Shown piece after piece: positions 8,523 to 59,186 of a stretch of DNA of 64,000 nucleotides (its first letter is position 1; each line of letters starts with the position of its first letter). A model generated the notes under the pieces. That model searched no databases. It saw nothing but the letters and a program-made list of their open reading frames with translations, and was not told the origin of the DNA. The position numbers and the translations under genes are program-made. Source of the DNA: a virus; the IMG/VR virus record IMGVR_UViG_3300045988_122441. One strand, 5' to 3'.

Positions 8523-8811
8523 CTTTGATCCACAGGTCGGTGATTCTGTAAGGGTTCGATCGTGGGAAGATATGAAAAGTGAGTTCGGTATCGATGAGGA
8601 TGGAAATATCCCGTGCAGATTTTCCTTTACCGAATATATGAAAGATATGTGCGGGGATGAATTTACCATTACGAAGATTCACGATGGTAAATATAGCGGA
8701 CATGAAAAGGGGAGCGTTATGTTGTCGGTTGATATGCTCGAACCTATCCCAGAAGAAGAAATCGACGGGACGGAAATTGATGATTTCCTGAGTGCAATGA
8801 AGGTAAATTAG
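8509..8811 (+). CDS. Hypothetical protein (100 aa)
   Basis: ATG with RBS aaggagg 10 nt upstream; overlaps the upstream gene end by 14 nt. Confidence 0.55.
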   Translation: MDRSNFDPQVGDSVRVRSWEDMKSEFGIDEDGNIPCRFSFTEYMKDMCGDEFTITKIHDGKYSGHEKGSVMLSVDMLEPIPEEEIDGTEIDDFLSAMKVN

Positions 8812-8824
8812 TGGAGGTAGTGTT

Positions 8825-9232
8825 ATGAGGCTTATCATAGTGACTGGACAAGAGGGTGCGGACGTAGAGAACCTACTCCGCAGAACTATATCCGAAAATA
8901 AATACACGTATGATGATGCTCCTAAAATGGTCTTTCCTGAAAGGTCTAGCTTGCTTTATCATCCAAGAAGCCTTTACAACAACGTTAGAAAAGTTGTCAG
9001 CGATCATATTGACAGGAATGAAGATTTGTTCGTAGCAACATTTTCTGATTATGCTATGTATGGCGTAAGGGTTGAGATAAGACTTGCTGATTTTGAAGGC
9101 GCTAAGCTGTATCAGATGATGTCAGATGGCGAGGTTGTGGTATCCGAGATAGATAGTAATGGGAAATGCCAATATATCAAGGGAGTATTTGATGTTTTGG
9201 ACGAAGCTCTTAATGACGTACTTGGATGGTAG
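8825..9232 (+). CDS. Hypothetical protein (135 aa)
   Basis: ORF with RBS ggaggtag upstream. Confidence 0.55.
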   Translation: MRLIIVTGQEGADVENLLRRTISENKYTYDDAPKMVFPERSSLLYHPRSLYNNVRKVVSDHIDRNEDLFVATFSDYAMYGVRVEIRLADFEGAKLYQMMSDGEVVVSEIDSNGKCQYIKGVFDVLDEALNDVLGW

Positions 9233-9537: not shown

Positions 9538-10824
9538 ATGGGATATAAAGATATATATAAATTGCAGGAAATTGGGGGAGCAAAAGCCAAATGCGATTTC
9601 ATAAAAGAACACGCAGATGATGGATATTTTAAAAGATTTCTATATTTTGCGTTGAATCCGTTAATTACATACAATATATCGAAAAAATCACTGGATAAGC
9701 TTGTGACTGAAGAGGGTACAGAGGGTCAAAAGCTTATCTTTTTTAATGATATTTTCGAGTGCTGCGAACACCTTTCAAGATTGAGAAGTATGGATGATGC
9801 AACATTACGGCAGGTAAAAATGCTGTTAAATGTGAAATATTCCGATAAGGCAGAAAGAGAGTTATATATGCAACTGCTCTCAAAGACAGTACGTCTCGGT
9901 ATTACAGGTAAGACCATTAACAAGATCATTCCGAATCTTATTCCTGAATGGGAAGTACAGCAAGCTTATCCGGTTGATAAGTATCCTTTGAAAGAAGGAA
10001 CAGAATTCTGGTTGACACAGAAGCTCAACGGAGCAAGAGCAACCTTATATGAAGGTCAGCTGCTTGCAAGAAGTGGTATGCCATACAAAGGTCTGGAACA
10101 TATCACTTCTGCATTGTCCTGGTTAAGAGTGGCAGGATTCGTTGCTGACGGAGAATTGACACTCAAAGACAAAGGAAATCTGAGTGATAACGAAGCGTTT
10201 AGAGTTGCAACTGGAGTTCTCAACTCGGATAGTGTTAATAAAACGGTGATTTGCTACACGATTTTTGACATGATTCCAATCAGAGATTTCGATTCACCTG
10301 CTCCACAGACTACATATCGTTATCGTCGAGAGATTCTGAATCAGTTCGCCGAAAGGATTGATGATACGAATGGCGCGGTTAAGGTTCTGCCTGTTTTGTA
10401 TCATGGAAACGATCAATCCAAAATAGATGAGCTTTTGGAACAGATGGTTCGTGAGGACAAAGAGGGACTGATGATTAATACGGATGTTCCATATAGAAGA
10501 ACACGACATAAAGGTATTCTTAAAGTAAAGAGATTCTATACTATGGACTTACCAATTATCAGATGTGAAGGTGGAACTGGAAGACTGAAAGGGACTCTCG
10601 GAGCTTTTGTTCTGGAGTACAAAGGTAATGAGGTCAAAGTTGGTTCTGGATTCACTGACGAACAAAGAGAAAAATTCTGGCGAGATAGAGATGATCTGAC
10701 AGGAACGCTTTGTGAAGTAAAATATAAAGAAATTTCACAGGATAAGGGAACTGGGCTTGAAAGCTTGCAGTTCCCCGTTTTTGTAGGATTGAGAACAGAT
10801 AAAACAGAAGTAAGTTACGGATAA
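9538..10824 (+). CDS. ATP-dependent DNA ligase
   Basis: Nucleotidyltransferase motif I KLNGAR (KxxG), motif IV EGLMIN, motif V LKVK. OB-domain pattern GAFVLEYKGNEVKVGSGFTDEQRE. Confidence 0.85.
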   Translation: MGYKDIYKLQEIGGAKAKCDFIKEHADDGYFKRFLYFALNPLITYNISKKSLDKLVTEEGTEGQKLIFFNDIFECCEHLSRLRSMDDATLRQVKMLLNVKYSDKAERELYMQLLSKTVRLGITGKTINKIIPNLIPEWEVQQAYPVDKYPLKEGTEFWLTQKLNGARATLYEGQLLARSGMPYKGLEHITSALSWLRVAGFVADGELTLKDKGNLSDNEAFRVATGVLNSDSVNKTVICYTIFDMIPIRDFDSPAPQTTYRYRREILNQFAERIDDTNGAVKVLPVLYHGNDQSKIDELLEQMVREDKEGLMINTDVPYRRTRHKGILKVKRFYTMDLPIIRCEGGTGRLKGTLGAFVLEYKGNEVKVGSGFTDEQREKFWRDRDDLTGTLCEVKYKEISQDKGTGLESLQFPVFVGLRTDKTEVSYG

Positions 10825-14010: not shown

Positions 14011-16224
14011 ATGAGAGTTTTACTGTTATTAAGAGGAAGCGCCGGATGCGGAAAATCAACATGGATTGAGCAGAACGGGTTAAAGCAGTATGCATTATCT
14101 GCTGATGATATCCGAATGATGTATTCAAGCCCTCAGATGATGCCGGATGGAACACACGCAATCAATCAGTCAAATGACGGAGTAGTATGGAAAACACTGT
14201 TTAATATTCTGGAAACTAGAATGAGAAATGGAGAGTTTACAGTAATTGATGCCACAAACTCCAAAACAGCTGAGATGAATAGATACAAGAAGATGTGTGA
14301 CGAATACAGATACAGAATGTTTTGCGTTGATTTTACTACGATTCCGATTGAAGTTACAAAGGAAAGAAATCGTGGACGGCAGGAGTTGAAAAGAGTACCG
14401 GAGGAAGTAATCGATAAGATGTATGCAAGATTTGAGACACAGAAGATTCCGTCTGGTATCAAGGTCATTCAGCCGGATGAGTTAAACGCTGTGTTTATGA
14501 AGAAATTTGATCTGAATCAGTATAAGCGCATCCATCATATTGGAGATATTCATGGATGTAGAACTGCACTGGATACATATTTCAAGATGAATGGCGGATT
14601 CAAAGATGATGAGTTTTATATCTTCTGTGGCGATTACACAGATCGTGGAATTGAAAATGCAGATGTCCTGAAATTCCTCCTTTCAACCTACGATAAGCCG
14701 AATGTTTTACTGCTTGAGGGGAATCATGAACGGTGGTTATGGGACTGGGCGCATGACAAAGTAAGCAATTCAAAGGAATTTGAGTTCCATACAAAAGCTG
14801 AGATTGAAGATGCCGGAATTGACAAGAAATCAATCAGAAAGCTTTACAGAAGAATGGGACAGTGTGCTTACTATGAGTTTCGTGGCAAGACAGTCCTTGC
14901 TACTCATGCAGGATTGAGCTTCATCCCAGAGAATTTAACTACAGTCGCTACGAGTCAGATGATTAAGGGCGTTGGAAGATATAATGATGCCGAGCAGGTC
15001 GCATCTACCTTTGCTGAAAAGATGGGCGATGGATTCTATCAGGTTCATGGTCATAGAAATACCAAAGGTCTTCCGGTAAAAGTCAACGCTCATGTCTTCA
15101 ATCTTGAAGGCAGAGTTGAGTTTGGTGGAAATCTGAGAGCCGTTATCCTCGATAACGATGGGGCTTTCGTCCCTGTTGAGGTACAGAATACCGTCTTAAG
15201 AGAGCCTGAGAAATTAGAGTCCAGTGCTGACTCTGTCGGTGAGTGGATTTTTGAATTACGTCGTAATAAATACATCAAAGAAAAACAGTACGGCAATATT
15301 TCATCTTTCAACTTCACCAAAACAGCGTTTTATGACAAAATCTGGGACGAACAGACAACAAAAGCAAGAGGATTGTACATCGACATTCCAAAGCAGAAAG
15401 TTGTAGCCAGAGCATACGATAAGTTCTTCAATGTGAATGAGCGTCCAGAAACAAAACTTGAGATGTTGCATGACAAGCTGTCATTCCCAGTGAGAGCGTA
15501 TGTTAAGGAAAACGGATATCTCGGAATCGTTGCGAATAATCCAGAAACAGGAGAGCTGTTTGTGACAACGAAATCCAATCCGGAAGGAGCATTCGCAGAA
15601 TGGTTTATGGAGGCACTTCAGAAACAGCTCGGCGAAGAAACGCTTGACAAAGTAAATGAGTATTCAAAAGAGCATAACGTATCCTTTGTGTTTGAAAATG
15701 TAGACATGGAGCGTGACCCGCACATCATCAAATACCCAGAAAGTAAAGTATTTCTGCTTGATATTGTAGTAAACGATATGAAGTTCCAGAAGCTGAGCTA
15801 TGAGGATATGTGTGACGTGGCTGACTCAATGAATATTCCACATAAAGAGCTTGGCTATGAGATCGATACATGGCAGGAGTTCTTTGACTGGTACAACGAA
15901 GTGATGGTAGAAGATTACAGATACAACGGAAGACTCATTGAAGGATTTGTGGTTGAAGATTCAGATGGATACATGGTTAAGCTGAAACTGGCATACTACC
16001 ATTTCTGGAAGTTCATGAGATCTATCGCTCATGAGGCAATCAGAAAAGGCTATATCGACCCGAAGAGAACATCAGCACTGGTTACTCCTATTGCAAATCA
16101 GTTCTACTCATGGGTAAAAACACTGCATGATGTGGAAGATGTTGACAGTGTCCCGAGGGATATTTGTACTCTGAGAGATATGTTCTATGAATCCGACTCC
16201 GGTAAGAAATTCAAATATGAATAG
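14011..16224 (+). CDS. Pnkp-type RNA repair enzyme: polynucleotide 5'-kinase / 2',3'-phosphatase / ligase-like adenylyltransferase
   Basis: N-terminal P-loop GSAGCGKST. Central lambda-phosphatase-type motifs GDIHGC, GDYTDRG, GNHE, THAG, GHRN. C-terminal nucleotidyltransferase motif I VKENGYLG (KxxG). The three-domain order matches bacterial Pnkp. Confidence 0.8.
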   Translation: MRVLLLLRGSAGCGKSTWIEQNGLKQYALSADDIRMMYSSPQMMPDGTHAINQSNDGVVWKTLFNILETRMRNGEFTVIDATNSKTAEMNRYKKMCDEYRYRMFCVDFTTIPIEVTKERNRGRQELKRVPEEVIDKMYARFETQKIPSGIKVIQPDELNAVFMKKFDLNQYKRIHHIGDIHGCRTALDTYFKMNGGFKDDEFYIFCGDYTDRGIENADVLKFLLSTYDKPNVLLLEGNHERWLWDWAHDKVSNSKEFEFHTKAEIEDAGIDKKSIRKLYRRMGQCAYYEFRGKTVLATHAGLSFIPENLTTVATSQMIKGVGRYNDAEQVASTFAEKMGDGFYQVHGHRNTKGLPVKVNAHVFNLEGRVEFGGNLRAVILDNDGAFVPVEVQNTVLREPEKLESSADSVGEWIFELRRNKYIKEKQYGNISSFNFTKTAFYDKIWDEQTTKARGLYIDIPKQKVVARAYDKFFNVNERPETKLEMLHDKLSFPVRAYVKENGYLGIVANNPETGELFVTTKSNPEGAFAEWFMEALQKQLGEETLDKVNEYSKEHNVSFVFENVDMERDPHIIKYPESKVFLLDIVVNDMKFQKLSYEDMCDVADSMNIPHKELGYEIDTWQEFFDWYNEVMVEDYRYNGRLIEGFVVEDSDGYMVKLKLAYYHFWKFMRSIAHEAIRKGYIDPKRTSALVTPIANQFYSWVKTLHDVEDVDSVPRDICTLRDMFYESDSGKKFKYE

Positions 16225-27820: not shown

Positions 27821-28149
27821 GGGGCTGTAAAGGTTTCGACAGGGGTATGAAAGTTATGAATTCGCTAGAGTGATGACTTAATCATCAAACCTTAAATACA
27901 AACGCAAACAGACAGATGTTAGCAGTAGCCTAAGTTGCTACACCAAAACACATTGAGATAATGCTGGTAGATGTTGAGGTTCAAAAACAAGCATATTCAG
28001 TATACGGTTCCCTGTATATGAATACCTGCATTGGTTGAGATGGTTAAGAACAGGGTGGTGGACAAGAAATCAGTACATGATTCCAAAACAGCGTAAAGAT
28101 TCATAGTGAGTAGTATTTTTGGACAGGGGTTCGATTCCCCTCAGCTCCA
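27821..28149 (+). ncRNA. ssrA: tmRNA (SsrA), one-piece
   Basis: 5' end ggggctgtaaaggtttcgacagggg. 3' end ggacaggggttcgattcccctcagctcca. The acceptor stem includes the G3:U70 alanine determinant; T-arm gaggg/cccct-like. The tag reading frame ends ...ANRQMLAVA-TAA (stop at 27931-27933). CCA is not encoded. Confidence 0.9.
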
Positions 28150-28761: not shown

Positions 28762-28998
28762 ATGTGTAAAGTGATGTTAAATTCCATTGACAAAGTAAAA
28801 CGATTTGTCAATATAACCTCAAGAGTAGACGGAGATGTATTTCTTCAGTCTGGTAGATACATAATTGATGCGAAGTCCATTATGGGGATTTTCAGTATCG
28901 ACTTAACAAAACCATTGGAAATGAGCTTTGAGAAATGTTCCGACGGAGAAAGAGATAAGTATCTGGAGAAAATTCAGGAGTTTATCGTGGAGGTGTAG
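28762..28998 (+). CDS. HPr-like (PTS phosphocarrier fold) small protein
   Basis: IIDAKSIMGIFSIDLTKPLEMSFE resembles the HPr-family pattern aKSimgvmsLg...g..i. Start taken at the ATG with RBS aaaggaga. Confidence 0.5.
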   Translation: MCKVMLNSIDKVKRFVNITSRVDGDVFLQSGRYIIDAKSIMGIFSIDLTKPLEMSFEKCSDGERDKYLEKIQEFIVEV

Positions 28999-28999
28999 T

Positions 29000-30028
29000 A
29001 TGAATTTATTACAAATCAAAGATTTAATCGCATCCGATGAATACGAATTTCTCAGAAGCAATGAGCATCTTGGAGATAAAGTAATCATGATAGGGCTTGG
29101 CGGAAGTCATGCTTATGGAACTAATATAGAAACTTCTGACCTCGATGTCAGAGGATGTGCATTAAATAGCAAAGAGGAAATTCTTACGAATCAGCATTAT
29201 GAACAGTTTGTTGATGAGAAAACAGACACTACAATTTATGCATTCAATAAATTAATTAGTCTGCTGTGTAATTGCAATCCAAATACGATTGAAATGCTCG
29301 GGTTAAAGCCCGAGCATTATTTATATCTGTCACCTGTTGGTAGAGAGCTTCTTAATAATAAAGGTCTTTTCCTTTCAAAGAAAGCAGCTCAGGCTTTCGG
29401 CGGTTATGCAACAGCTCAGCTTAGGAGACTTGATAATAAGGCAGCAAGACTTGTCGGGCAGGCTCAACGAGAGCAACATATCCTGAATAGCATTAATAAT
29501 GTCAGGGCGGATTTCAACGAAAGGTATTCTCTGTACCCAGACGATGCTATCAGATTATACATAGATAAATCAGATAAAGAAGATATGGAATCAGAGATTT
29601 TCATGGATGTAAAGCTGACAAGGTATCCTTTGCGTGATTACAAATCTATGTGGTCAGAAATGCATAATGTCGTGAAAGATTATGCGAAAGTTGGTAAGAG
29701 AAATCAACATGCGATTGAGCATAATAAACTCGGTAAGCATATGATGCATCTGATCAGACTGTATATGATGTGCCTGGATATACTTGAGAACAAGGAAATT
29801 GTGACGTTCAGAAGCAAAGAACATGACTTATTGATGTCGATTAGAAATGGTAAATATCTGGATACCAATAGACAGCCGATTCCAGAATTCTTTGAAATGG
29901 TTGATGAATATGAAAAGAAAATGCAGTATGCGAAAGAGAATACTGATCTTCCAGAGAAACCGGATTATAAGAAGATACAGGAATTTGTTATGGATGTTAA
30001 TGAGAGAGTTGTCAGAGGATCAATTTAA
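29000..30028 (+). CDS. Pol-beta-superfamily nucleotidyltransferase (RlaP/PF10127-like, RNA-repair-associated type)
   Basis: IGLGGSHAYGTNIETSDLDVRG matches the G-S-x-x-x-G...D-x-D minimal NTase motif. The size and helical C-terminal half fit the 'predicted nucleotidyltransferase' family linked to RNA repair operons. Confidence 0.6.
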   Translation: MNLLQIKDLIASDEYEFLRSNEHLGDKVIMIGLGGSHAYGTNIETSDLDVRGCALNSKEEILTNQHYEQFVDEKTDTTIYAFNKLISLLCNCNPNTIEMLGLKPEHYLYLSPVGRELLNNKGLFLSKKAAQAFGGYATAQLRRLDNKAARLVGQAQREQHILNSINNVRADFNERYSLYPDDAIRLYIDKSDKEDMESEIFMDVKLTRYPLRDYKSMWSEMHNVVKDYAKVGKRNQHAIEHNKLGKHMMHLIRLYMMCLDILENKEIVTFRSKEHDLLMSIRNGKYLDTNRQPIPEFFEMVDEYEKKMQYAKENTDLPEKPDYKKIQEFVMDVNERVVRGSI

Positions 30029-31394: not shown

Positions 31395-31916
31395 ATGAAG
31401 AGAGTATTGATTGTAGTTGATGTGCAAAATGATTTTGTGGATGGGGTACTTGGTAGCAAGGAAGCTCAAGCAATCATCCCGGCTGTGAAAGCAAAGATTG
31501 AGAAATATGATAAATACGGTAGAGAGATTCTTTTCACGAGAGATTCGCATGATGGGGACTATCTGTACACCTCGGAAGGAAGAAAGCTGCCTATTAAACA
31601 CTGCATTATGGGGACTCGCGGACATAGAATTGTCGATGGTCTGGAGACACATAATAGTAGACATATTGATAAGCCGACATTCGGATATGCGGGATGGGCT
31701 GAGGTGTTAGACATGCTTGGAGATCCGGATAGCATTGAGATGATTGGTCTTGATACCGATATTTGTGTTGTAACAAATGCGTTGATTATCAAGACATTGA
31801 ATCCAGATATAGAAATCACAGTTGATGCGAGCTGCTGTGCCGGATCAACACCAGAGAAACATAAAGCTGCACTCGAAGTGCTGAAAAGCTGTCAAATTGA
31901 AGTGATTGGAGAGTAA
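31395..31916 (+). CDS. pncA: Nicotinamidase / isochorismatase-family hydrolase
   Basis: LIVVDVQNDF..G, TRDSH, and IGLDTDICV (catalytic Cys) are typical of PncA. Confidence 0.8.
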   Translation: MKRVLIVVDVQNDFVDGVLGSKEAQAIIPAVKAKIEKYDKYGREILFTRDSHDGDYLYTSEGRKLPIKHCIMGTRGHRIVDGLETHNSRHIDKPTFGYAGWAEVLDMLGDPDSIEMIGLDTDICVVTNALIIKTLNPDIEITVDASCCAGSTPEKHKAALEVLKSCQIEVIGE

Positions 31917-31920
31917 GGAT

Positions 31921-32748
31921 ATGATTATTTTGGATGGTACAGAAGTAAAAGTAGAACATTTCCCCGATGGGACACAGCGCATCGTTTTGGAGAATCTTCC
32001 AAATATGGAATGGAGAAATACACATGAAATCACATGGAAATTTGAGAGAGAAGAGGAACTTTCGACACTGATTTATGTTACAAGACATCTGAGAAATATG
32101 CCATGTATACAGGAAATTTGCCTTAATCTGTTATATCTTCCAAATGCAAGAATGGATCGTATCCATAACCATAAAGAGGTATTCACATTAAGAGGCTTTG
32201 CAGACGCAATCAACTGGCTTCGGTTTGATGTGGTGAGAGTCCTTGACGTACATAGTAACGTAGGAGCCGCACTTCTGAATAATGTACTTGTGTGTACACC
32301 AGAGAAGTATTTAAAAGAAGTAATAGATCAGATAGATGAGACCGTACCGTTAGTTTTATATTTCCCAGACGAGGGAGCAGCGAAAAGATATTCAGGTTTA
32401 TTACCGGGTATGAAGTATTGCTACGGAGAGAAGAAAAGAGATTGGGAGACAGGGAAAATTCTTGGACTGGCTATCAAGACAAACGGTATTGACCTACAAA
32501 AGCAGACTGTATTGATGGTAGACGATATTATAGCTTATGGAGGTTCCTTATATTACAGTGCGAAAGAGTTGAAACGCATGGGAGCTGATACAATTTATGC
32601 TTATGCCACACATACGGAAAACTCAATTCTCGATAAAGAAAAAGGAACATTGATTAAGTTGCTGGAGGACAATACGGTAGAAAGATTATTTACAACAGGA
32701 AGTCTGTTCATTGGAGAACATGATAAGATTACAGTTTTGGAGGTGTAA
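31921..32748 (+). CDS. Ribose-phosphate pyrophosphokinase-like enzyme (Prs-like; candidate ADPR-pyrophosphate synthetase of NARP1 type)
   Basis: PRPP/ribose-phosphate binding loop LMVDDIIAYGGSL on a two-domain PRTase-type layout. It sits directly upstream of the NAMPT-like gene. Confidence 0.7.
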   Translation: MIILDGTEVKVEHFPDGTQRIVLENLPNMEWRNTHEITWKFEREEELSTLIYVTRHLRNMPCIQEICLNLLYLPNARMDRIHNHKEVFTLRGFADAINWLRFDVVRVLDVHSNVGAALLNNVLVCTPEKYLKEVIDQIDETVPLVLYFPDEGAAKRYSGLLPGMKYCYGEKKRDWETGKILGLAIKTNGIDLQKQTVLMVDDIIAYGGSLYYSAKELKRMGADTIYAYATHTENSILDKEKGTLIKLLEDNTVERLFTTGSLFIGEHDKITVLEV

Positions 32749-32751
32749 GAA

Positions 32752-34215
32752 ATGGATAGCACAATGGCTTTATTGTTATCAGATACATATAAACAGTGTC
32801 ATGACCGGATGTATCCGCAGGGATTGACTAAATTGGTTTCATACTGGGTTCCGAGAAGATCTATGCTCAAGAAGCAGGATAAGATGGTTTTCTTTGGTTT
32901 GCAGGCATTTATTAAAGAGTATTTGATGGGATATTTTCAGACCAGTTTCTTCGATATTGACGAGGAAGAAATTGTTAAGCAGTACACTGATACGATGAAC
33001 GTACAGATTGGAGCCAGTAATTATGATGTGGATAAGATCGTACAGTTGCATCGCCTCGGATATCTTCCGTTGGAAATCAGAGCACTTCCAGAAGGAACGC
33101 TTGTTACAATGGGAATCCCATGCATTGAAATCACAAACACTAAAGAAGACTTTGCATGGCTCGTGCAGTGGATCGAATGTATTTTACAGGTAGAACTGTG
33201 GAAGCCTTGCTGTCACGCAACAATCGGTCATATGTACAGAAATATTGCAGACTATTGGTATAACAAGACAACCGATGGTCTGGACGGAGCAATGGCTTGT
33301 GCAGATTTCGGGATGAGAGGAATGTCATGTATGGATGAAGCGGTAAGATGCTCTGCTGCATGGCTGCTGTCATTCAACAAAACATCTACAATTCCGGCGA
33401 TTTCATATATTGATAAATATTACAATGCAGATTGTAAAAATAAGGGGATTGGTCTTGGAGCAGTATCCACAGAGCATAGCGTCATGGGTGCGAATTTCTC
33501 AATCGACGGCGATGAAATCACATTCGTCAAAAGGCTGCTTACTGAATTATATCCAGATACATCATTCAGTATGGTTTCAGACACATATGATTACTGGAAT
33601 ATGGTAAACAACATCCTGCCTCAGTGTAGAGATGAGATTATGAACCATAACGGAAAACTTTTAGTCCGACCGGACAGCGGAGATATCGTGGAAATCTCAG
33701 TTAAAACAGTTGAAAGATTGTGGGAAATTTTCGGAGGAACTGAAAACTCCAAAGGGTATAAGGTGTTAGATCCTCATATCGGAATCATTTACGGAGATGG
33801 ATGTACATTATCCAATGTCGAAACTATCTGGAAAGAACTTGAGAAACGTGGATTTGCTGCGAATAACATTGCATATGGAGTTGGGGCATTTTGCTTTACA
33901 GCAATCGTAGAAGATGGAAAACTTGTGGTTGCTACCAGAGATACATTTGGCATCGCAATGAAGGCGACATACGGTGTTATTAACGGTAAAAAACTGATGA
34001 TCTATAAAGACCCGAAGACAGACACAAGCCATTTAAAGAAATCGCATAAAGGTTGTTGCCGAGTATACAAAGAAGATGGACAGCTGAAGTGCCAGGATCA
34101 GCTGTCGGAGATGAGCGATGATAGCTTGCTCACAACAGTTTTCAAGGATGGTAAGCTTGTTAAAGAGGAGTCGTTTATGGATATTAGAGAAAGGATGTAT
34201 GGAGTAAATGATTAA
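32752..34215 (+). CDS. Nicotinamide phosphoribosyltransferase-like enzyme (NAMPT/NadV-like; candidate Namat)
   Basis: Length (487 aa) and blocks DTYKQCH, FGMRGMS, VRPDSGD, IIYGDG match type II PRTases of the NAMPT family. Confidence 0.8.
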   Translation: MDSTMALLLSDTYKQCHDRMYPQGLTKLVSYWVPRRSMLKKQDKMVFFGLQAFIKEYLMGYFQTSFFDIDEEEIVKQYTDTMNVQIGASNYDVDKIVQLHRLGYLPLEIRALPEGTLVTMGIPCIEITNTKEDFAWLVQWIECILQVELWKPCCHATIGHMYRNIADYWYNKTTDGLDGAMACADFGMRGMSCMDEAVRCSAAWLLSFNKTSTIPAISYIDKYYNADCKNKGIGLGAVSTEHSVMGANFSIDGDEITFVKRLLTELYPDTSFSMVSDTYDYWNMVNNILPQCRDEIMNHNGKLLVRPDSGDIVEISVKTVERLWEIFGGTENSKGYKVLDPHIGIIYGDGCTLSNVETIWKELEKRGFAANNIAYGVGAFCFTAIVEDGKLVVATRDTFGIAMKATYGVINGKKLMIYKDPKTDTSHLKKSHKGCCRVYKEDGQLKCQDQLSEMSDDSLLTTVFKDGKLVKEESFMDIRERMYGVND

Positions 34216-34669
34216 AATTATTGACGGCGATTTACTTGCATCCAAAACAGATATTATTGCACACCAGGTTAATTGCAAAGGTGCTTTTAACTCTGGTGTT
34301 GCAAGGGCAATACGGGAATATGATGTTCAGGTTTTCCATGATTATCGTGCGTACTGCTACAGTAAAACGGCAGATGATCTTATAGGAGATGTGAGATATT
34401 TCCAATCAGATATGGATGACAAAATATACGCAAACCTATTTGCTCAGAAATCTTATGGATATGATGGCAAACAATATACAGATTTGGAAGCGTTGAAAAA
34501 GTGCTTTGAAAATCTTCGGGACTATGTAATGGAGAGGAATATGAGTATTGCAATGCCTTATAAGATTGGAAGCGTTAGAGGAGGCGCAAACTGGGAAGAT
34601 GTTTATGCTTTAATTGAAACTACATTTCGAGAAGTAAATGTAGAATTATGGAGGCTTGATAAAGGATGA
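34208..34669 (+). CDS. Macrodomain protein (ADP-ribose binding/hydrolase)
   Basis: IKIIDGDLLASKTDIIAHQVNCKGAFNSGVARAI matches the N-terminal macro-domain pattern. Confidence 0.75.
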   Translation: MIKIIDGDLLASKTDIIAHQVNCKGAFNSGVARAIREYDVQVFHDYRAYCYSKTADDLIGDVRYFQSDMDDKIYANLFAQKSYGYDGKQYTDLEALKKCFENLRDYVMERNMSIAMPYKIGSVRGGANWEDVYALIETTFREVNVELWRLDKG

Positions 34670-35082
34670 TAAGTGCGTTTAGAGGAAAATATTATTTTTT
34701 AAGCAATTTTTATGCAGCTCCTGTGGTGTGGGACGGTGTTTCTTATAAGAATAATGAAGCTGCGTTTCAATCTGCTAAAGTAGGAAGAGAGTACAGGCAG
34801 GAATTTGCAGAACTAACCGCTTCAGAAGCTAAGAAATTAGGCAGGAAGGTTCCGCTTAGACCAGACTGGGAGAACGTTAAGGAAAGAATTATGTACGAGA
34901 TTTGCCTTGCTAAATTCTCTCAGAATGAAGAACTCAAAGAAAAATTACTTTTAACAGGAGAATGTGCCTTAGAAGAATGTAATACATGGGGTGACAAAGT
35001 CTGGGGAACGGTTAATGGTGAAGGAGAAAACAAACTTGGAAAGATTCTGATGAAAATACGGGAGGAACTGAGACATGAGTAA
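34666..35082 (+). CDS. NADAR-domain protein (YbiA/DUF1768 family)
   Basis: FRGKYYFLSNFY...V.WDG..Y.N.EAAFQSAK...W......M...KF.QN..L...LL.TG...L.E......D..WG is the hallmark NADAR pattern. Confidence 0.8.
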   Translation: MISAFRGKYYFLSNFYAAPVVWDGVSYKNNEAAFQSAKVGREYRQEFAELTASEAKKLGRKVPLRPDWENVKERIMYEICLAKFSQNEELKEKLLLTGECALEECNTWGDKVWGTVNGEGENKLGKILMKIREELRHE

Positions 35083-35821
35083 ATTTAATGCAAAGGCAGT
35101 AAAAGATGACATCGTAAAATGGATTAGAGAATTCTTTGAGCAGAATGGTAAAGGATGTAGTGCTGTAGTCGGGATCTCCGGAGGAAAGGATTCCAGTGTG
35201 GTTGCAGCTCTGTGCGTAGAGGCTCTCGGCAAAGATAGGGTTTTCGGAGTGCTTATGCCGAATGGGGAGCAAGTTGATATTGAAGCATCGTATTCTCTGG
35301 TAAAGCATCTCGGGATTGACTATTGTGTGGTTAATATTCATGAAGCAATTCGATCACTGAAACATGAAATTAAACCACAGCTCGGAGACCATTGGTCTAT
35401 GCAGACTTCTATAAATCTTCCGGCAAGAATCAGAATGGCTACATTATATGCAGTATCTCAGACGATTGGTGGAAGAGTTGCCAATACATGTAATTTATCA
35501 GAGGACTGGGTTGGTTATGCCACCAGATATGGAGATGGAGCCGGAGATTTCAGTCCGTTATCTAAACTCACGGTAACAGAGGTTAAAGCGATCGGACGAG
35601 AGCTTGGTCTTCCAGAAGAGTTAATTGAAAAGGTTCCTACGGACGGTCTGTGTGGTCATACGGACGAAGACAATCTCGGATTCACGTATGTAGTTCTTGA
35701 TAGATACATTAGAACTGGTGAAATCGATGATATGCATACAAAAGAAAGAATTGATACTATGCATGAAAAGAACCTATTCAAACTGAAGCCTATGCCAACA
35801 TTTGAATACGAAGCGGCATAA
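35075..35821 (+). CDS. nadE: NH3-dependent NAD+ synthetase
   Basis: PP-loop VVGISGGKDSSV plus GDGAGDFSPL and the TDEDNLGFTY blocks characteristic of NadE. Confidence 0.85.
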   Translation: MSKFNAKAVKDDIVKWIREFFEQNGKGCSAVVGISGGKDSSVVAALCVEALGKDRVFGVLMPNGEQVDIEASYSLVKHLGIDYCVVNIHEAIRSLKHEIKPQLGDHWSMQTSINLPARIRMATLYAVSQTIGGRVANTCNLSEDWVGYATRYGDGAGDFSPLSKLTVTEVKAIGRELGLPEELIEKVPTDGLCGHTDEDNLGFTYVVLDRYIRTGEIDDMHTKERIDTMHEKNLFKLKPMPTFEYEAA

Positions 35822-35842: not shown

Positions 35843-36313
35843 ATGTTAGTCCCAGCTGCGCTATATAAGGATGAAATTATCAAAAATTTTAAGAAGCGAT
35901 ATTACACAGAAGACATGATGTATGAAACCGGATGTTTAGAGCAATGGTATCCGAATATTAAGGATATGCCAAGCGAGGGAGAATTTGATTATGCGATTGT
36001 GTGTTGTGATAAGCTAATTGGATATCTTTCTTACAAAGTAGACTACTATTGCTCAAAAGTATATAATTTTGGACTTATGTCATTCGAGAGTGGCAACCCG
36101 ATTATAGGAAGAGATTTGTTCAATAAAATGGAGGAGCTAGTACATCGGTTCCACAGAATTGAATGGAGAATGGTGGGAGGCAATCCGGTTGAGAAGCATT
36201 ATGATAAGTTTTGTGAAAGATATAATGGTAACAAGTATTTCTTAAAAGATGCGATTAGAGATCGAAATGGGAATTACCACGACGACATTATTTATGAAAT
36301 TGTAAATGAATAA
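35843..36313 (+). CDS. GNAT-like acetyltransferase-fold protein (tentative)
   Basis: The pattern LIGYLSYKVD...RIEWRMVGGNPVEKHYDKF..RYNG resembles RimJ/L-like GNATs. No acetyl-CoA motif is clearly readable. Confidence 0.4.
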   Translation: MLVPAALYKDEIIKNFKKRYYTEDMMYETGCLEQWYPNIKDMPSEGEFDYAIVCCDKLIGYLSYKVDYYCSKVYNFGLMSFESGNPIIGRDLFNKMEELVHRFHRIEWRMVGGNPVEKHYDKFCERYNGNKYFLKDAIRDRNGNYHDDIIYEIVNE

Positions 36314-36323
36314 AGGAGAAATT

Positions 36324-37183
36324 ATGGATACATCAGCACTTGCGAAAAGAATGAAAAAGTATGAAGCAGTGCCGAAAAATACGTTAATGAGAAGAACGCC
36401 CGTAATCATCAGAGTTGATGGTCGGGCGTTTCATACTTTTACAAAAGGATTTCAGAAGCCTTTTGATGACGTATTGGTGCGGGTAATGCAGGATACGATG
36501 AAGTATTTATGTGAGAATATACAGGATGTGTGTTTGGATATACGCAGTCCGATGAAATTACACTAATTCTCATAGATTATAAGAAGCTTAATTCAGAAGC
36601 TTGGTTTGCTTATGAGGTGCAGAAAATGTGTAGCATTGTGGCAAGTATGGCTACAATGGCATTCAATAGATTTTTCATGTATGAGTATGAAGAATTCAAT
36701 AGATGGATTTACGAAGGAAGTCCAACAGATGAAGACAAGCGACTAAATGATGTCTATTACAATGCGATGTGTCAAGGAGCAATGTTTGATGCCAGAGTCT
36801 TCAATATTCCAAAAGAAGAAGTTACGAACAATATTTATTGGAGACAGCTTGACGCAAGTAGAAACTCAATTCAGATGCTCGGACAGGCAAATTTTAGCCA
36901 CAGAGAGTTACTGAATAAGACATGTAACCAAATACAGGATATGTTGATGACGCAGCATGGAATTAACTGGAATGACATGGGTACATCTTATAAACGAGGC
37001 AGTTGCTGTGTAAGAAACAGGCGAGTTATCAGCACATCTGCCGACGGTACAGTAACATGTGAAATCAGGAATCCAAAAGAGCCTGAAACAGCGTGGGTTA
37101 TCGACAATGAAATTCCGATTTTCAAAGGAGAAGGCAGAAAATACATCGACGAGCTGATATTTATTGGAGGTGTTGAGATTTGA
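36324..37183 (+). CDS. Thg1-like protein (tRNA-His guanylyltransferase family / 3'-5' polymerase) interrupted by a -1 frameshift near 36522-36526
   Basis: Frame 1 gives IIRVDGRAFHTFTKGF.KPFD...MQDTMKYLCENIQ. The -1 frame continues GCVFGYTQSDEITLIL. Joined together they reproduce the conserved Thg1/TLP core (RxDGxxFHxF...G.x.YxQSDEIS). Confidence 0.75.
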
Positions 37184-38016
37184 AATGGTCAGAAGCAAAG
37201 GAAAAATCAGCAGATAAGACATGGGCGTTTTTGGAACTGCGACCGACAGGTAAGGTAGTATCCAAAGAACAGTATGAATATGTGCTTTATTACGCAAAGC
37301 AAACAGGTATTGATACCAGGTACATAAGAACATTCGAGGAAGAAAAGGGCAAATATCTCAGACTTGGAAGTTGGTTCGGCGGAGCCAGCTATTATTTCTA
37401 CTTTGCAGAACAGCCAGAAGGCGTATCGGAAACTGCTGAGAGAAATGAATTTGGAGCTTATACAAAATGCACAGAGTATTACGAGGATTTCTCATACGGA
37501 AAGTTTGGGGCTATCACATTTGAAGAAACGACTCAGAAGGTAAAGTGTAAAAGATGTGGTGGACATGGCGTGCTTCCTATTGGAAAGAATATCCGAGGAG
37601 TTATGAAATGTAATGTTTGTGGTGGCAGTGGCGAAGTTGAAGTGGATGCGCCGGTTTATGAAACGAATATGAAGAAGGCTATCCTGTTTGATTATTGCTT
37701 TGAGGCTCCGGAAGAGTTAGTGAATTTCTGCAAGACTATCGGATATAGTAATCCTGATTTTGCAAATGACTTTGACCTTATGTTCGATCAGAGAGTGATT
37801 GAATTCTGCGAAAAGCGTCTGGAACCACTTTGGAGTGAGAAAGTGTATAAGGGAAGAGAAAGTTATGCATTTCGATGTGGCTTTGCAGGAGCCGGATACA
37901 TAAGAGAGATTGATACTTCAAGAGTTTGGAACTTACGACATAATAATGTGGACGCTCCGATTATTAATTATGTAGAAGTAAGCACGAACAAGTATGGATA
38001 TTTGTCCGTATTATAG
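37180..38016 (+). CDS. Hypothetical protein with DnaJ-type zinc finger
   Basis: CKRCGGHGVLP...CNVCGGSGEV carries two CxxCxGxG repeats. Confidence 0.55.
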   Translation: MKWSEAKEKSADKTWAFLELRPTGKVVSKEQYEYVLYYAKQTGIDTRYIRTFEEEKGKYLRLGSWFGGASYYFYFAEQPEGVSETAERNEFGAYTKCTEYYEDFSYGKFGAITFEETTQKVKCKRCGGHGVLPIGKNIRGVMKCNVCGGSGEVEVDAPVYETNMKKAILFDYCFEAPEELVNFCKTIGYSNPDFANDFDLMFDQRVIEFCEKRLEPLWSEKVYKGRESYAFRCGFAGAGYIREIDTSRVWNLRHNNVDAPIINYVEVSTNKYGYLSVL

Positions 38017-43141: not shown

Positions 43142-43213
43142 AGGGGTATAGCCAAGCGGTAAGGCACAGGAATTTGACTCCTGCATTCGTCGGTTCAAAT
43201 CCGACTACCTCTG
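43142..43213 (+). tRNA. tRNA-Gln (anticodon TTG)
   Basis: Cloverleaf: acceptor aggggta/tacctct (one G:U), D arm gcc-aagcggtaa-ggc, anticodon arm cagga-atTTGac-tcctg, T arm gtcgg-ttcaaat-ccgac. The overall sequence is close to bacterial tRNA-Gln. Confidence 0.85.
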
Positions 43214-43259
43214 CTCGGACGTAAAAACGTCCAAAAAATAATCTGAAAGGAGAACGTCA

Positions 43260-58550: not shown

Positions 58551-58761
58551 ACTGAAAAGATCAATCGCATGGCATAGCATTAAATATGTTTTGACAGCAA
58601 TATTTATGGTGCTTAATCTTCTCGGAATACTGCATTGGTATTGGGTGTGGATATTTTTCCCGATCCTGTTATCGCTGGGGATAAAGATACTGATATTAGT
58701 TGTACTTAGTTTCTTTGTTTGCGTATTACCGAGATGGACTGAGAGGTGGACGGAAGAATGA
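58534..58761 (+). CDS. Small membrane protein (2 TM)
   Basis: Hydrophobic segments VLTAIFMVLNLLGILHWYWVWIFFPILLSLGIKILILVVLSFFV. Confidence 0.5.
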   Translation: MSRKNELKRSIAWHSIKYVLTAIFMVLNLLGILHWYWVWIFFPILLSLGIKILILVVLSFFVCVLPRWTERWTEE

Positions 58762-59186
58762 GAAGATTATTTATTATGAGAAAAGATTTACATATGTCTA
58801 CAGGAAAACTGCTTGCACAGGTAATGCACTGTGCCGAAGCATACTGGACTTCAAAGATTCGTAAGGGTAATTTATACCGAACAAACGATGGACAGTATAT
58901 GGCGCAAATGACAATGCCTGTTGAAGTGTATACAGACTATGTATGCGGATCATTCACAAAGACAGTGTGTGAGGCAAAGAATAAGAACCAGTTGCTTAAA
59001 GCAAAAGCCATTGCAGATGAGTTGGGTCTTGTGGAAGACATTGATTATGGGTGTATTTATGATAACTGCCTTACAGAGCTTGAGCCAGAAGAAGATAACG
59101 GCACAACACTTACTGGCATTTGGTTTTGTCCGTTAGATGATGAGATTGCTCACAAGATCAGTAAAAAATATCAATTATATAAATAG
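58758..59186 (+). CDS. Peptidyl-tRNA hydrolase, PTH2 family
   Basis: LFIMRKDLHMSTGKLLAQVMHCAEA matches the PTH2 N-terminal pattern (vvR.DL.M..GK.aAQ..HA). Confidence 0.6.
   Translation: MRRLFIMRKDLHMSTGKLLAQVMHCAEAYWTSKIRKGNLYRTNDGQYMAQMTMPVEVYTDYVCGSFTKTVCEAKNKNQLLKAKAIADELGLVEDIDYGCIYDNCLTELEPEEDNGTTLTGIWFCPLDDEIAHKISKKYQLYK

Follow-up and report, generated by a model that had tools for sequence, protein, structure and literature searches.

The six-gene cluster considered here lies at positions 31395-35821 of the window, by which we mean the whole stretch of 64,000 nt that was analysed (IMG/VR record IMGVR_UViG_3300045988_122441), part of a phage genome that measures at least 115 kb. At its centre are adjacent genes related to Adps and Namat, the pair that constitutes the phage NAD+ (nicotinamide adenine dinucleotide) reconstitution pathway 1 (NARP1), and on balance we read the locus as a deamidated version of NARP1 in a temperate phage of human-gut Lachnospiraceae and other Clostridia. 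The transferase of this version would use nicotinic acid, and would be served by a nicotinamidase (PncA) and an NAD+ synthetase (NadE). We lean, if only slightly, towards regarding it as a fourth, undescribed phage route of NAD+ reconstitution, "deamido-NARP1", made up of a Namat-derived nicotinate ADP-ribosyltransferase with PncA and NadE on its flanks, no adenylyltransferase, and a slot that serves as a swap site. That the module acts against NAD+ depletion is, by our own estimate, likely. The reactions, the switch of substrate and the anti-defence role are predictions from sequence and gene context.

The genes of the cluster are listed below, Namat* being the Namat-like transferase whose pyridine pocket appears to have been re-specified.

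31395-31916, + strand: PncA-like nicotinamidase, 173 aa (PF00857, 9e-26)
31921-32748, + strand: Adps-like ADP-ribose (ADPR) pyrophosphokinase, 275 aa (phrog_619, 5e-56; below all NCBIfam Prs cut-offs)
32752-34215, + strand: Namat*, 487 aa (NAMPT_N and NAPRTase domains)
34208-34669, + strand: macro-domain protein, 153 aa, in the variable slot (weak PF01661 match)
34666-35082, + strand: NADAR of the YbiA subfamily, 138 aa, in the variable slot (PF08719, 7.5e-28)
35075-35821, + strand: NadE, single-domain NH3-dependent NAD+ synthetase, 248 aa (PF02540, 6e-55)

All six open reading frames (ORFs) start with ATG and are preceded by a GGAG-type Shine-Dalgarno ribosome-binding site. The junctions, in order, measure +4, +3, -8, -4 and -8 nt, a spacing compatible with a single translationally coupled operon, and the G+C content (0.40) is the same as that of the window. 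The first-pass annotation of this DNA had recognized a six-gene NAD+ island; the ORFs were confirmed at these coordinates and their family labels by family scans, but the unit that proves to be conserved consists of four genes, the middle of the island being exchangeable.

The transferase and its pyridine pocket

The Adps-like and Namat-like proteins can be placed by sequence in the NARP1 lineage, because Namat* scores higher to Namat than to NAMPT and its neighbour is closer to Adps than to Prs. Namat* gave 386 bits against the crystal sequences of SpbetaL1 Namat (9w5x, 9w5w) and 321 against 9ke8, versus approximately 205 against human/mammalian NAMPT. The Adps-like protein is 34% identical to the Adps of phage FADO, 31% to that of Gary and 29% to that of ICP1, as against 21% to E. 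coli Prs. It is devoid of the Prs N-terminal segment, and scores no more than 70 bits against the NCBIfam Prs models, which have cut-offs of 113-536 (e.g. 70 vs 296). By pairwise identity and profile scores it groups with phage Adps, apart from cellular Prs, and its PP loop (DDIIAYGGS) is closer to that of FADO (DDLSSYGGT) and unlike those of ICP1 (DDICDGAAS) and Prs (DDMIDTGGT). These comparisons uphold the proposal of the first-pass annotation that the pair is of the Adps/Namat and not of the Prs/NadV kind. The Namat-like gene begins 3 nt past the Adps stop codon; Namat lies within 10 genes in 97% of the Adps clade. Lys171 aligns with the catalytic hairpin Lys185 of ICP1 (Lys162 in SpbetaL1), and Arg77, His111, Asp150, Asp201 and Asp202 with the acceptor residues Arg87, His121, Asp161, Asp212 and Asp213 (roles according to PMC13586617). 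Since these residues are also conserved in Prs they show catalytic competence, not specificity. The reaction predicted for the Adps-like protein is the conversion of ADPR and ATP to ADPR pyrophosphate (ADPR-PP) and AMP.

The nicotinamide pocket of SpbetaL1 Namat is made up of Phe189, Arg192, Asp215, Ala242, Arg306, Asp13' and Tyr15'; Asp215 hydrogen-bonds the nicotinamide, and a D215A mutation results in an 8-fold loss of activity with this substrate (PMC12774641). Five of these seven residues are kept in the window enzyme, the other two being replaced by serine (Asp215 by Ser212 and Ala242 by Ser239). In human NAMPT the amide is bound by Asp219, the structural equivalent of which in human NAPRT is Ser214, a residue contributing to nicotinate specificity (PMC4442680); PMC7096376, citing Khan et al., gives Ser214 the same role.

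An unbiased scan for discriminating alignment columns was carried out on 81 representatives of 50%-identity clusters, 22 of which are variants, that is, have Ser or Ala at position 215 and Ser at 242. The only ligand contacts at which variant and canonical sequences share no residue are Asp215 and Ala242. A third column without overlap, V304, lies two residues before Arg306, and the next-best discriminators (S239, H187, V240 and G213) are 1-3 residues from pocket residues. In both clades the other five pocket residues are invariant and the ribose-phosphate contacts conserved, as are most of the contacts to AMP (Asp361, an aromatic residue at 392 [F392], Thr398, Arg399 and Asp400). This is what one would expect if the pyridine-base specificity had switched and the ADP-ribosyl donor had stayed the same.

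The variant is widespread. Among the 150 nearest 50%-identity-cluster representatives, 85 are Asp/Ala, 29 Ala/Ser and 18 Ser/Ser, which puts the variant type at about 50/150. All variants fall into one clade of a neighbour-joining tree, from which it appears that the pocket change arose once and then diversified widely; several independent origins were considered and rejected on the strength of this tree. Alignment of the divergent, insertion-free variants revealed no close relatives in IMG/VR. A deamidated branch had been envisaged in the first-pass annotation on the assumption that the transferase could also accept nicotinic acid. The branch gains strong and independent sequence support from the covariation of Asp215 to Ser/Ala with PncA and NadE, but Namat* is probably not a Namat with an additional substrate; it is better described as a deep and separate subclade with a re-specified pocket. 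We think it rather probable that Namat* uses nicotinic acid with ADPR-PP, to yield nicotinic acid adenine dinucleotide (NaAD) and pyrophosphate.

Two observations on the gene itself may be added. Some gene calls in metagenomic relatives (P0119, P0300) fuse Namat* to NADAR (505 aa) or macro to NADAR (226 aa), and these may be real or may be frameshift artefacts at the overlapping stop/start junctions. Many Namat-family representatives (P0122-P0260) are 570-1100 aa long and match in two to four stretches, the first often ending at about query residue 310-320, a pattern suggestive of inteins or of insertions of another kind close to the conserved RPDSGD motif.

Partner genes and the variable slot

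The best PDB match to PncA is the P. horikoshii pyrazinamidase/nicotinamidase (1ILW/1IM5), with which Asp9, Lys93 and Cys124, which we take to be the catalytic triad, and Asp50, His52 and His69, presumably the metal ligands, align and are all conserved. It is predicted to hydrolyze nicotinamide to nicotinic acid and NH3. NadE scores 185 bits against TIGR00552 (cut-off 63.65) and has no glutaminase domain; its best PDB match is 2e18 (138 bits), followed by 3fiu (103 bits), a Francisella enzyme which we take to be a nicotinamide mononucleotide (NMN) synthetase. The predicted reaction of NadE is the conversion of NaAD, NH3 and ATP to NAD+.

Co-occurrence was assessed in three sets of 80 IMG/VR loci, recovered by window-led alignment, with SpbetaL1 Namat, and with the Namat encoded on MT835544, a human-faecal contig. 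To these were added 19 loci from bacterial genomes, the complete gut phage Phass-1, and FADO, Gary, ICP1 and F88 (validated or syntenic); only loci flanked by 5 kb or more on both sides were counted. PncA, Adps and NadE were found together in 164/166 variant loci, and PncA or NadE in 0/55 canonical (Asp/Ala) ones. The enzymes of FADO, Gary, ICP1 and F88 have Asp/Ala throughout, and no PncA or NadE gene is near them. The linkage holds down to 33% Namat identity and where genes have been inserted; it holds under re-ordering, PncA being downstream of NadE in MT835544-type loci; and it holds in a recoded genome (Phass-1, code 15 clade). Since the variants form a single clade, these counts are not independent events.

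In 50,697 GenBank phage records NadE occurs in 53, PncA in 7 and Adps in 1383. A lone PncA or NadE without NARP1 genes is present in records designated "UNVERIFIED Bacteriophage sp." (MT835572, MT835706, MT836475, MT835800, MT835512), probably fragments of bacterial DNA in view of the typically cellular genes on them (PncB, GH5 cellulase, nitroreductase, AlaX-like, ABC transporter, Fe-hydrogenase, PolA). The argument that such lone genes in gut "phage" records weaken the linkage was rejected on these grounds.

The conserved unit consists of PncA, Adps, Namat* and NadE, with a variable slot between the last two. The slot is occupied by a macro protein alone in 107 loci, by macro and NADAR, as in the window, in 33, by a HAD-like protein with a DFDDT motif in 15, and by NADAR alone in 4. 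None of these is present in 21 loci, in 17 of which NadE directly follows Namat* to give a minimal PncA-Adps-Namat*-NadE block. NADAR is situated less than 6 kb from Namat* in 36/166 variant loci. In close relatives that are approximately 90% identical to the window, the HAD-like gene replaces macro and NADAR.

The macro gene overlaps the end of Namat* by 8 nt and lies within two genes of both members of the pair. Its product matches the macro "phosphatase" encoded between Adps and Namat of Vibrio phage F88 over its full length (76 bits, 31% identity), the validated Gary Adpp with 32 bits (24% identity) and DarG with 29 bits. An AF2 model (pLDDT 92) analyzed with Foldseek confirmed the fold; Poa1p (TM 0.83-0.85) came out level with TARG1 and DarG, and a Poa1p-like protein is not separable by this search from a DarG/TARG1-like one. 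Lys81 aligns with what we assume, from its placement on the macro alignment, to be the catalytic Lys of DarG/TARG1, but columns 81-82 vary across 34 family members. The family consensus, FAQxxYGYDGK, is shared with the F88 protein. Our best guess from these likenesses is an Adpp-like ADPR-1''-phosphate phosphatase. The first-pass annotation had suggested that the macro and NADAR enzymes could supply ADPR from ADP-ribosylated targets or signalling nucleotides. For the macro protein this needs revision, as the macro protein (Adpp) of NARP1-AP is described as an ADPR-1''-phosphate phosphatase which counters aRES, and not as a general de-ADP-ribosylase (bioRxiv 10.64898/2026.01.28.702374).

The NADAR protein scores 82 bits against TIGR02464 (cut-off 74), 75 bits against PDB entry 2b3w (YbiA) and 31 bits against 8bau. 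The last-strand Glu that marks the YbiA subfamily (PMC11125620) is present, LEEC aligning with YbiA LVEH. NADARs hydrolyze guanine-ADP-ribose, and some phage members counter DarTG1 (PMC11125620, PMC11825919). The HAD-like protein had no sequence match in Pfam or PDB, its sole match being phrog_1238, which is labelled "phosphoheptose isomerase". Its gene is found in variant relatives (L007, 10293-10700; L009; Phass-1 [L013], 8576-8995) and between Adps and Namat in approximately 9/55 canonical NARP1 loci (e.g. L124, L136, L145). It may represent a second, non-homologous and undescribed NARP1-associated phosphatase.

Predicted route and competing explanations

The proposed route would begin with the ADPR and nicotinamide into which NAD+-depleting defences split NAD+. 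PncA would convert nicotinamide to nicotinic acid and NH3, and Adps would form ADPR-PP and AMP from ADPR and ATP. Namat*, having a pocket without the amide-binding Asp and with two additional Ser residues, would then join nicotinic acid and ADPR-PP directly to give NaAD and pyrophosphate. Lastly, NadE would form NAD+ from NaAD, NH3 and ATP, possibly recycling the NH3 derived from PncA. The route would need no adenylyltransferase for NMN or nicotinic acid mononucleotide (NaMN), and would cost one ATP more than NARP1. The slot genes would be exchangeable ADPR feeders or counter-defence functions; the macro protein probably turns ADPR-1''-phosphate into ADPR, like its counterpart in NARP1-AP, and NADAR may free ADPR from an N-glycosidic ADP-ribose adduct.

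To our knowledge the substrates of NadE are deamidated nucleotides only, and its obligatory presence would therefore imply a deamidated intermediate. If the Namat used nicotinamide, a PncA beside it would be working against it. In the precomputed Pfam annotation of identical contigs and in direct scans, the window (1-64000) showed neither a PF01467-type NMN/NaMN adenylyltransferase nor another gene of the NAPRT family. The absence of an NMN adenylyltransferase (NMNAT), which had been remarked upon in the first-pass annotation and held good, fits a self-contained pathway.

Several points weigh against this reading. Substrate specificity is deduced from two pocket positions and gene context, and in the view of the authors of the human NAPRT structure Ser214 is not by itself a full explanation of nicotinate specificity (PMC4442680). 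The elements that select ADPR-PP are altered in the subclade of the window. The SCH motif, expected as GSX-phi-X-phi-X-phi-TRD with positions 3 and 7 aromatic, reads GAFCFT[AIVEDGKLV]VATRD; it has an aromatic residue at position 3 (Phe380) and another at 5, position 7 being displaced by a 9-aa insertion at Tyr396. At the SCL stacking position, Arg40, where Arg, Lys or Tyr is expected, the window enzyme has Met38. Early-branching variants such as Phass-1 retain a canonical SCH (GAYTYQYVTRD), and 19/22 of the variant clade have Arg or Lys at the Arg40 position; the use of ADPR-PP is accordingly not secured for the window protein. The perfect association with PncA and NadE may reflect one ancestral event kept by linkage. 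That the second-best structural relative of NadE is 3fiu leaves amidation of NaMN possible, and an NMNAT could sit elsewhere, as the window covers 64 kb of a genome at least 115 kb long. Finally, the extra ATP is a cost that some advantage would have to repay; competition with host nicotinamidase, the use or availability of niacin in the gut and an NADase-resistant intermediate are ideas as to its benefit.

A possibly historical linkage is central to one competing explanation, namely canonical NARP1 with unrelated auxiliaries, in which Namat* uses nicotinamide, PncA and NadE boost the host Preiss-Handler pathway with host PncB and NadD acting in between, and the genes travel together by lineage. 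The single origin of the variant clade would allow this. The phage PncA and NadE do resemble Clostridia-type host genes, an example being a bacterial-looking pncA-pncB contig at approximately 40% identity, and Preiss-Handler genes, in the form of classical PncB-NadD-NadE clusters, have been reported from gut jumbo phages (PMC11662467). This explanation does not account for a divergence of the clades that is sharpest at the two pocket positions in contact with the amide, in an active site that is otherwise conserved, and the loss of activity of a true Namat carrying D215A speaks against nicotinamide as substrate (PMC12774641). The linkage, moreover, survives re-ordering and divergence to 33% identity and is missing from all 55 canonical loci, and PncA would compete with a nicotinamide-using Namat for its substrate. 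We regard the explanation as unlikely.

We hold a second alternative, ordinary deamidated salvage, to be just as improbable. Here the Prs-like enzyme would make phosphoribosyl pyrophosphate (PRPP), Namat* would make NaMN, host NadD would convert this to NaAD and NadE would act last or, in a variant of the scheme, NadE would amidate NaMN to NMN in Francisella-like fashion; ADPR would play no part. The remodelled clamp (SCH insertion and Met at Arg40) and the fair closeness of NadE to 3fiu speak for it, and SpbetaL1 Namat takes PRPP in vitro when ADPR-PP is absent (bioRxiv 10.1101/2024.02.11.579819). On the other hand the Prs-like protein groups with validated Adps, far from Prs, and SpbetaL1 Adps gave no product in a Prs-type assay (bioRxiv 10.1101/2024.02.11.579819). 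The AMP contacts (D361, aromatic-392, T398 and D400) are conserved clade-wide, with the GAYTYQYVTRD motif kept in Phass-1-like basal members. Genes for ADPR processing (macro, NADAR) stand inside the operon in most loci, and the window has neither NadD nor NMNAT.

The weakest alternative, that of a lysogenic-conversion or housekeeping module serving the NAD+ economy of the Lachnospiraceae host or NAD+-consuming enzymes of the phage, would suit a temperate phage with integrases and prophage copies, but is quite improbable given that ADPR arises chiefly from NADase activity, that the characterized Adps/Namat pairs all act against NAD+-depleting defences (bioRxiv 10.1101/2024.02.11.579819; PMC12774641), that the macro slot matches the anti-aRES accessory and that the DNA ligase of the window is ATP-dependent rather than NAD+-dependent.

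The carrier phage and relation to known systems

The window is phage DNA: its genes lie nearly all on one strand and include DnaB, DnaG, Pol III alpha, NrdD/G, a lysin and integrases. Identical or related copies of the island were found in hundreds of metagenomic and IMG/VR contigs, and because the arrangement recurs in this manner it is not due to chance. Related copies are carried by IMG/VR viral genomes of approximately 90-170 kb, and prophage copies by gut-sample assemblies of Lachnospiraceae, Roseburia, Ruminococcus and other Clostridia (for example scaffolds of Lachnospiraceae bacterium A4 and Ruminococcus sp. AM36-2AA). With its integrases and prophage copies the phage is temperate, and we read it as one of human-gut Lachnospiraceae/Clostridia. 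A megablast of the island against GenBank phages gave no match, a single-protein locus search with Adps recovered close relatives only, and a promoter/terminator scan of the region remained at background level.

Just downstream of NadE is a gene for a Thg1-like tRNAHis guanylyltransferase (36306-37183), which is broken near 36523 through the loss of 1 nt from a run of G (GGG to GG). The gene is whole (286 aa) in an otherwise identical contig, and the break could stem from slippage or an assembly error or could mark a pseudogene. It is flanked by two conserved unknown genes (35843-36313 and 37180-38016), both of them syntenic in all close relatives; one flanking product belongs to phrog_30343 with a faint GNAT-like match, while the other (278 aa) has a hint of a DnaJ-type CXXCXGXG zinc finger. 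In Bacillus phage FADO, too, a Thg1-like gene lies within a few kb of NARP1. An RNA/DNA repair set is located at 9538-10824, 14011-16224, 28928-30028 and 58746-59186, and comprises the ATP-dependent (not NAD+-dependent) DNA ligase, a 737-aa fusion of kinase, phosphatase and RNA ligase, an RlaP nucleotidyltransferase and a peptidyl-tRNA hydrolase of the PTH2 type. With Thg1 added, it suggests a tRNA-repair counter-defence arsenal. The window also encodes a tmRNA (tag ANRQMLAVA*), tRNA-Met and tRNA-Gln (27821-28149, 882-955 and 43142-43214), and cargo unusual for a phage (4068-4739, 5267-6421, 21365-26596 and 41662-43056): a ThiF-like protein, a reverse transcriptase (RVT_1), a P-type cation ATPase with three TerD genes after it, and a PemK toxin adjoining an MrpR-like recombinase.

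With NARP1 (Osterman et al., bioRxiv 10.1101/2024.02.11.579819) the locus shares an adjacent, phage-borne Adps/Namat pair in the same order, with catalytic, ribose-phosphate and AMP contacts kept. It differs in the Ser/Ala for Asp215 and Ser for Ala242 of Namat*, in its PncA and NadE genes, which 55/55 canonical loci lack, in the 9-aa clamp insertion of the window subclade, and in its predicted product, which is NaAD and not NAD+. NARP1-AP (Adps, Adpp and Namat) likewise has a small stand-alone macro gene in the operon, and the macro protein of the window is homologous to the "phosphatase" of F88, the layout of which is that of Gary. The window macro, of predicted activity and 24% identity to Gary Adpp, is unlike it in lying downstream of the transferase instead of between the pair, and macro is present in approximately 80% of variant loci against approximately 9-15% of canonical ones. 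The first and last enzymes, PncA and NadE, and a deamidated dinucleotide are common to the Preiss-Handler pathway (PncA, PncB/NAPRT, NadD, NadE). PncB and NadD are lacking here; in place of these two middle steps, Adps and the Namat-derived transferase would join nicotinic acid to an ADP-ribosyl donor made beforehand.

NARP2 (Nampt and Nmnat, KVP40) and NARP3 (PnuC and NadR; PMC13464706) are likewise phage pathways that restore NAD+ in the face of NAD+-depleting immunity. Unlike these the window has no NMNAT, NadR or PnuC, and its transferase belongs to the Namat clade and not to that of NARP2 Nampt; NARP3 was rejected as a match, being PnuC plus NadR. Phage NADAR and DarG-like anti-DarT factors (PMC11825919, PMC11125620) resemble the slot genes in that the NADAR is stand-alone with the YbiA-type Glu and the macro protein belongs structurally with TARG1, DarG and Poa1p. 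The locus has no known DarT context, however, the macro family is without the conserved DarG/TARG1 Lys, and both genes lie inside an NAD+ synthesis operon.

A survey of viral NAD+ metabolism lists NadV, NadM and NadR as the only synthesis enzymes. Nicotinic acid is not mentioned in the NARP1 preprint or the Namat structure paper, and no literature linking NARP1 with nicotinic acid, NadE, PncA, NaAD or Preiss-Handler was found in searches of incomplete coverage, so that an earlier description is possible. The pair (NARP1), the macro accessory (NARP1-AP) and the idea of accessory "feeder enzymes" supplying ADPR to NARP1 (RyDEP; bioRxiv 10.64898/2026.05.28.727677) are already known. The claim of the first-pass annotation that the extended logic was undescribed survives for the nicotinic acid route but not for the macro protein or the feeding of ADPR, and its interpretation as a whole is partly supported.

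Few antiviral strategies of bacteria are as common as NAD+ depletion, to which NARP1 is the principal answer known from phages. The deamidated version of this answer, if true, would provide a new reaction of NAD metabolism, the formation of NaAD from nicotinic acid and ADPR-PP, and a new four-enzyme pathway. A two-residue rule (Asp215/Ala242 versus Ser or Ala/Ser) would then separate nicotinamide-type from nicotinate-type transferases in metagenomes. The pathway would be abundant in phages of human-gut Clostridia and near-absent from cultured-phage databases, and surveys of cultured phages would have missed a large gut-specific branch. It would also raise the question of why Lachnospiraceae phages spend an extra ATP on the deamidated form.

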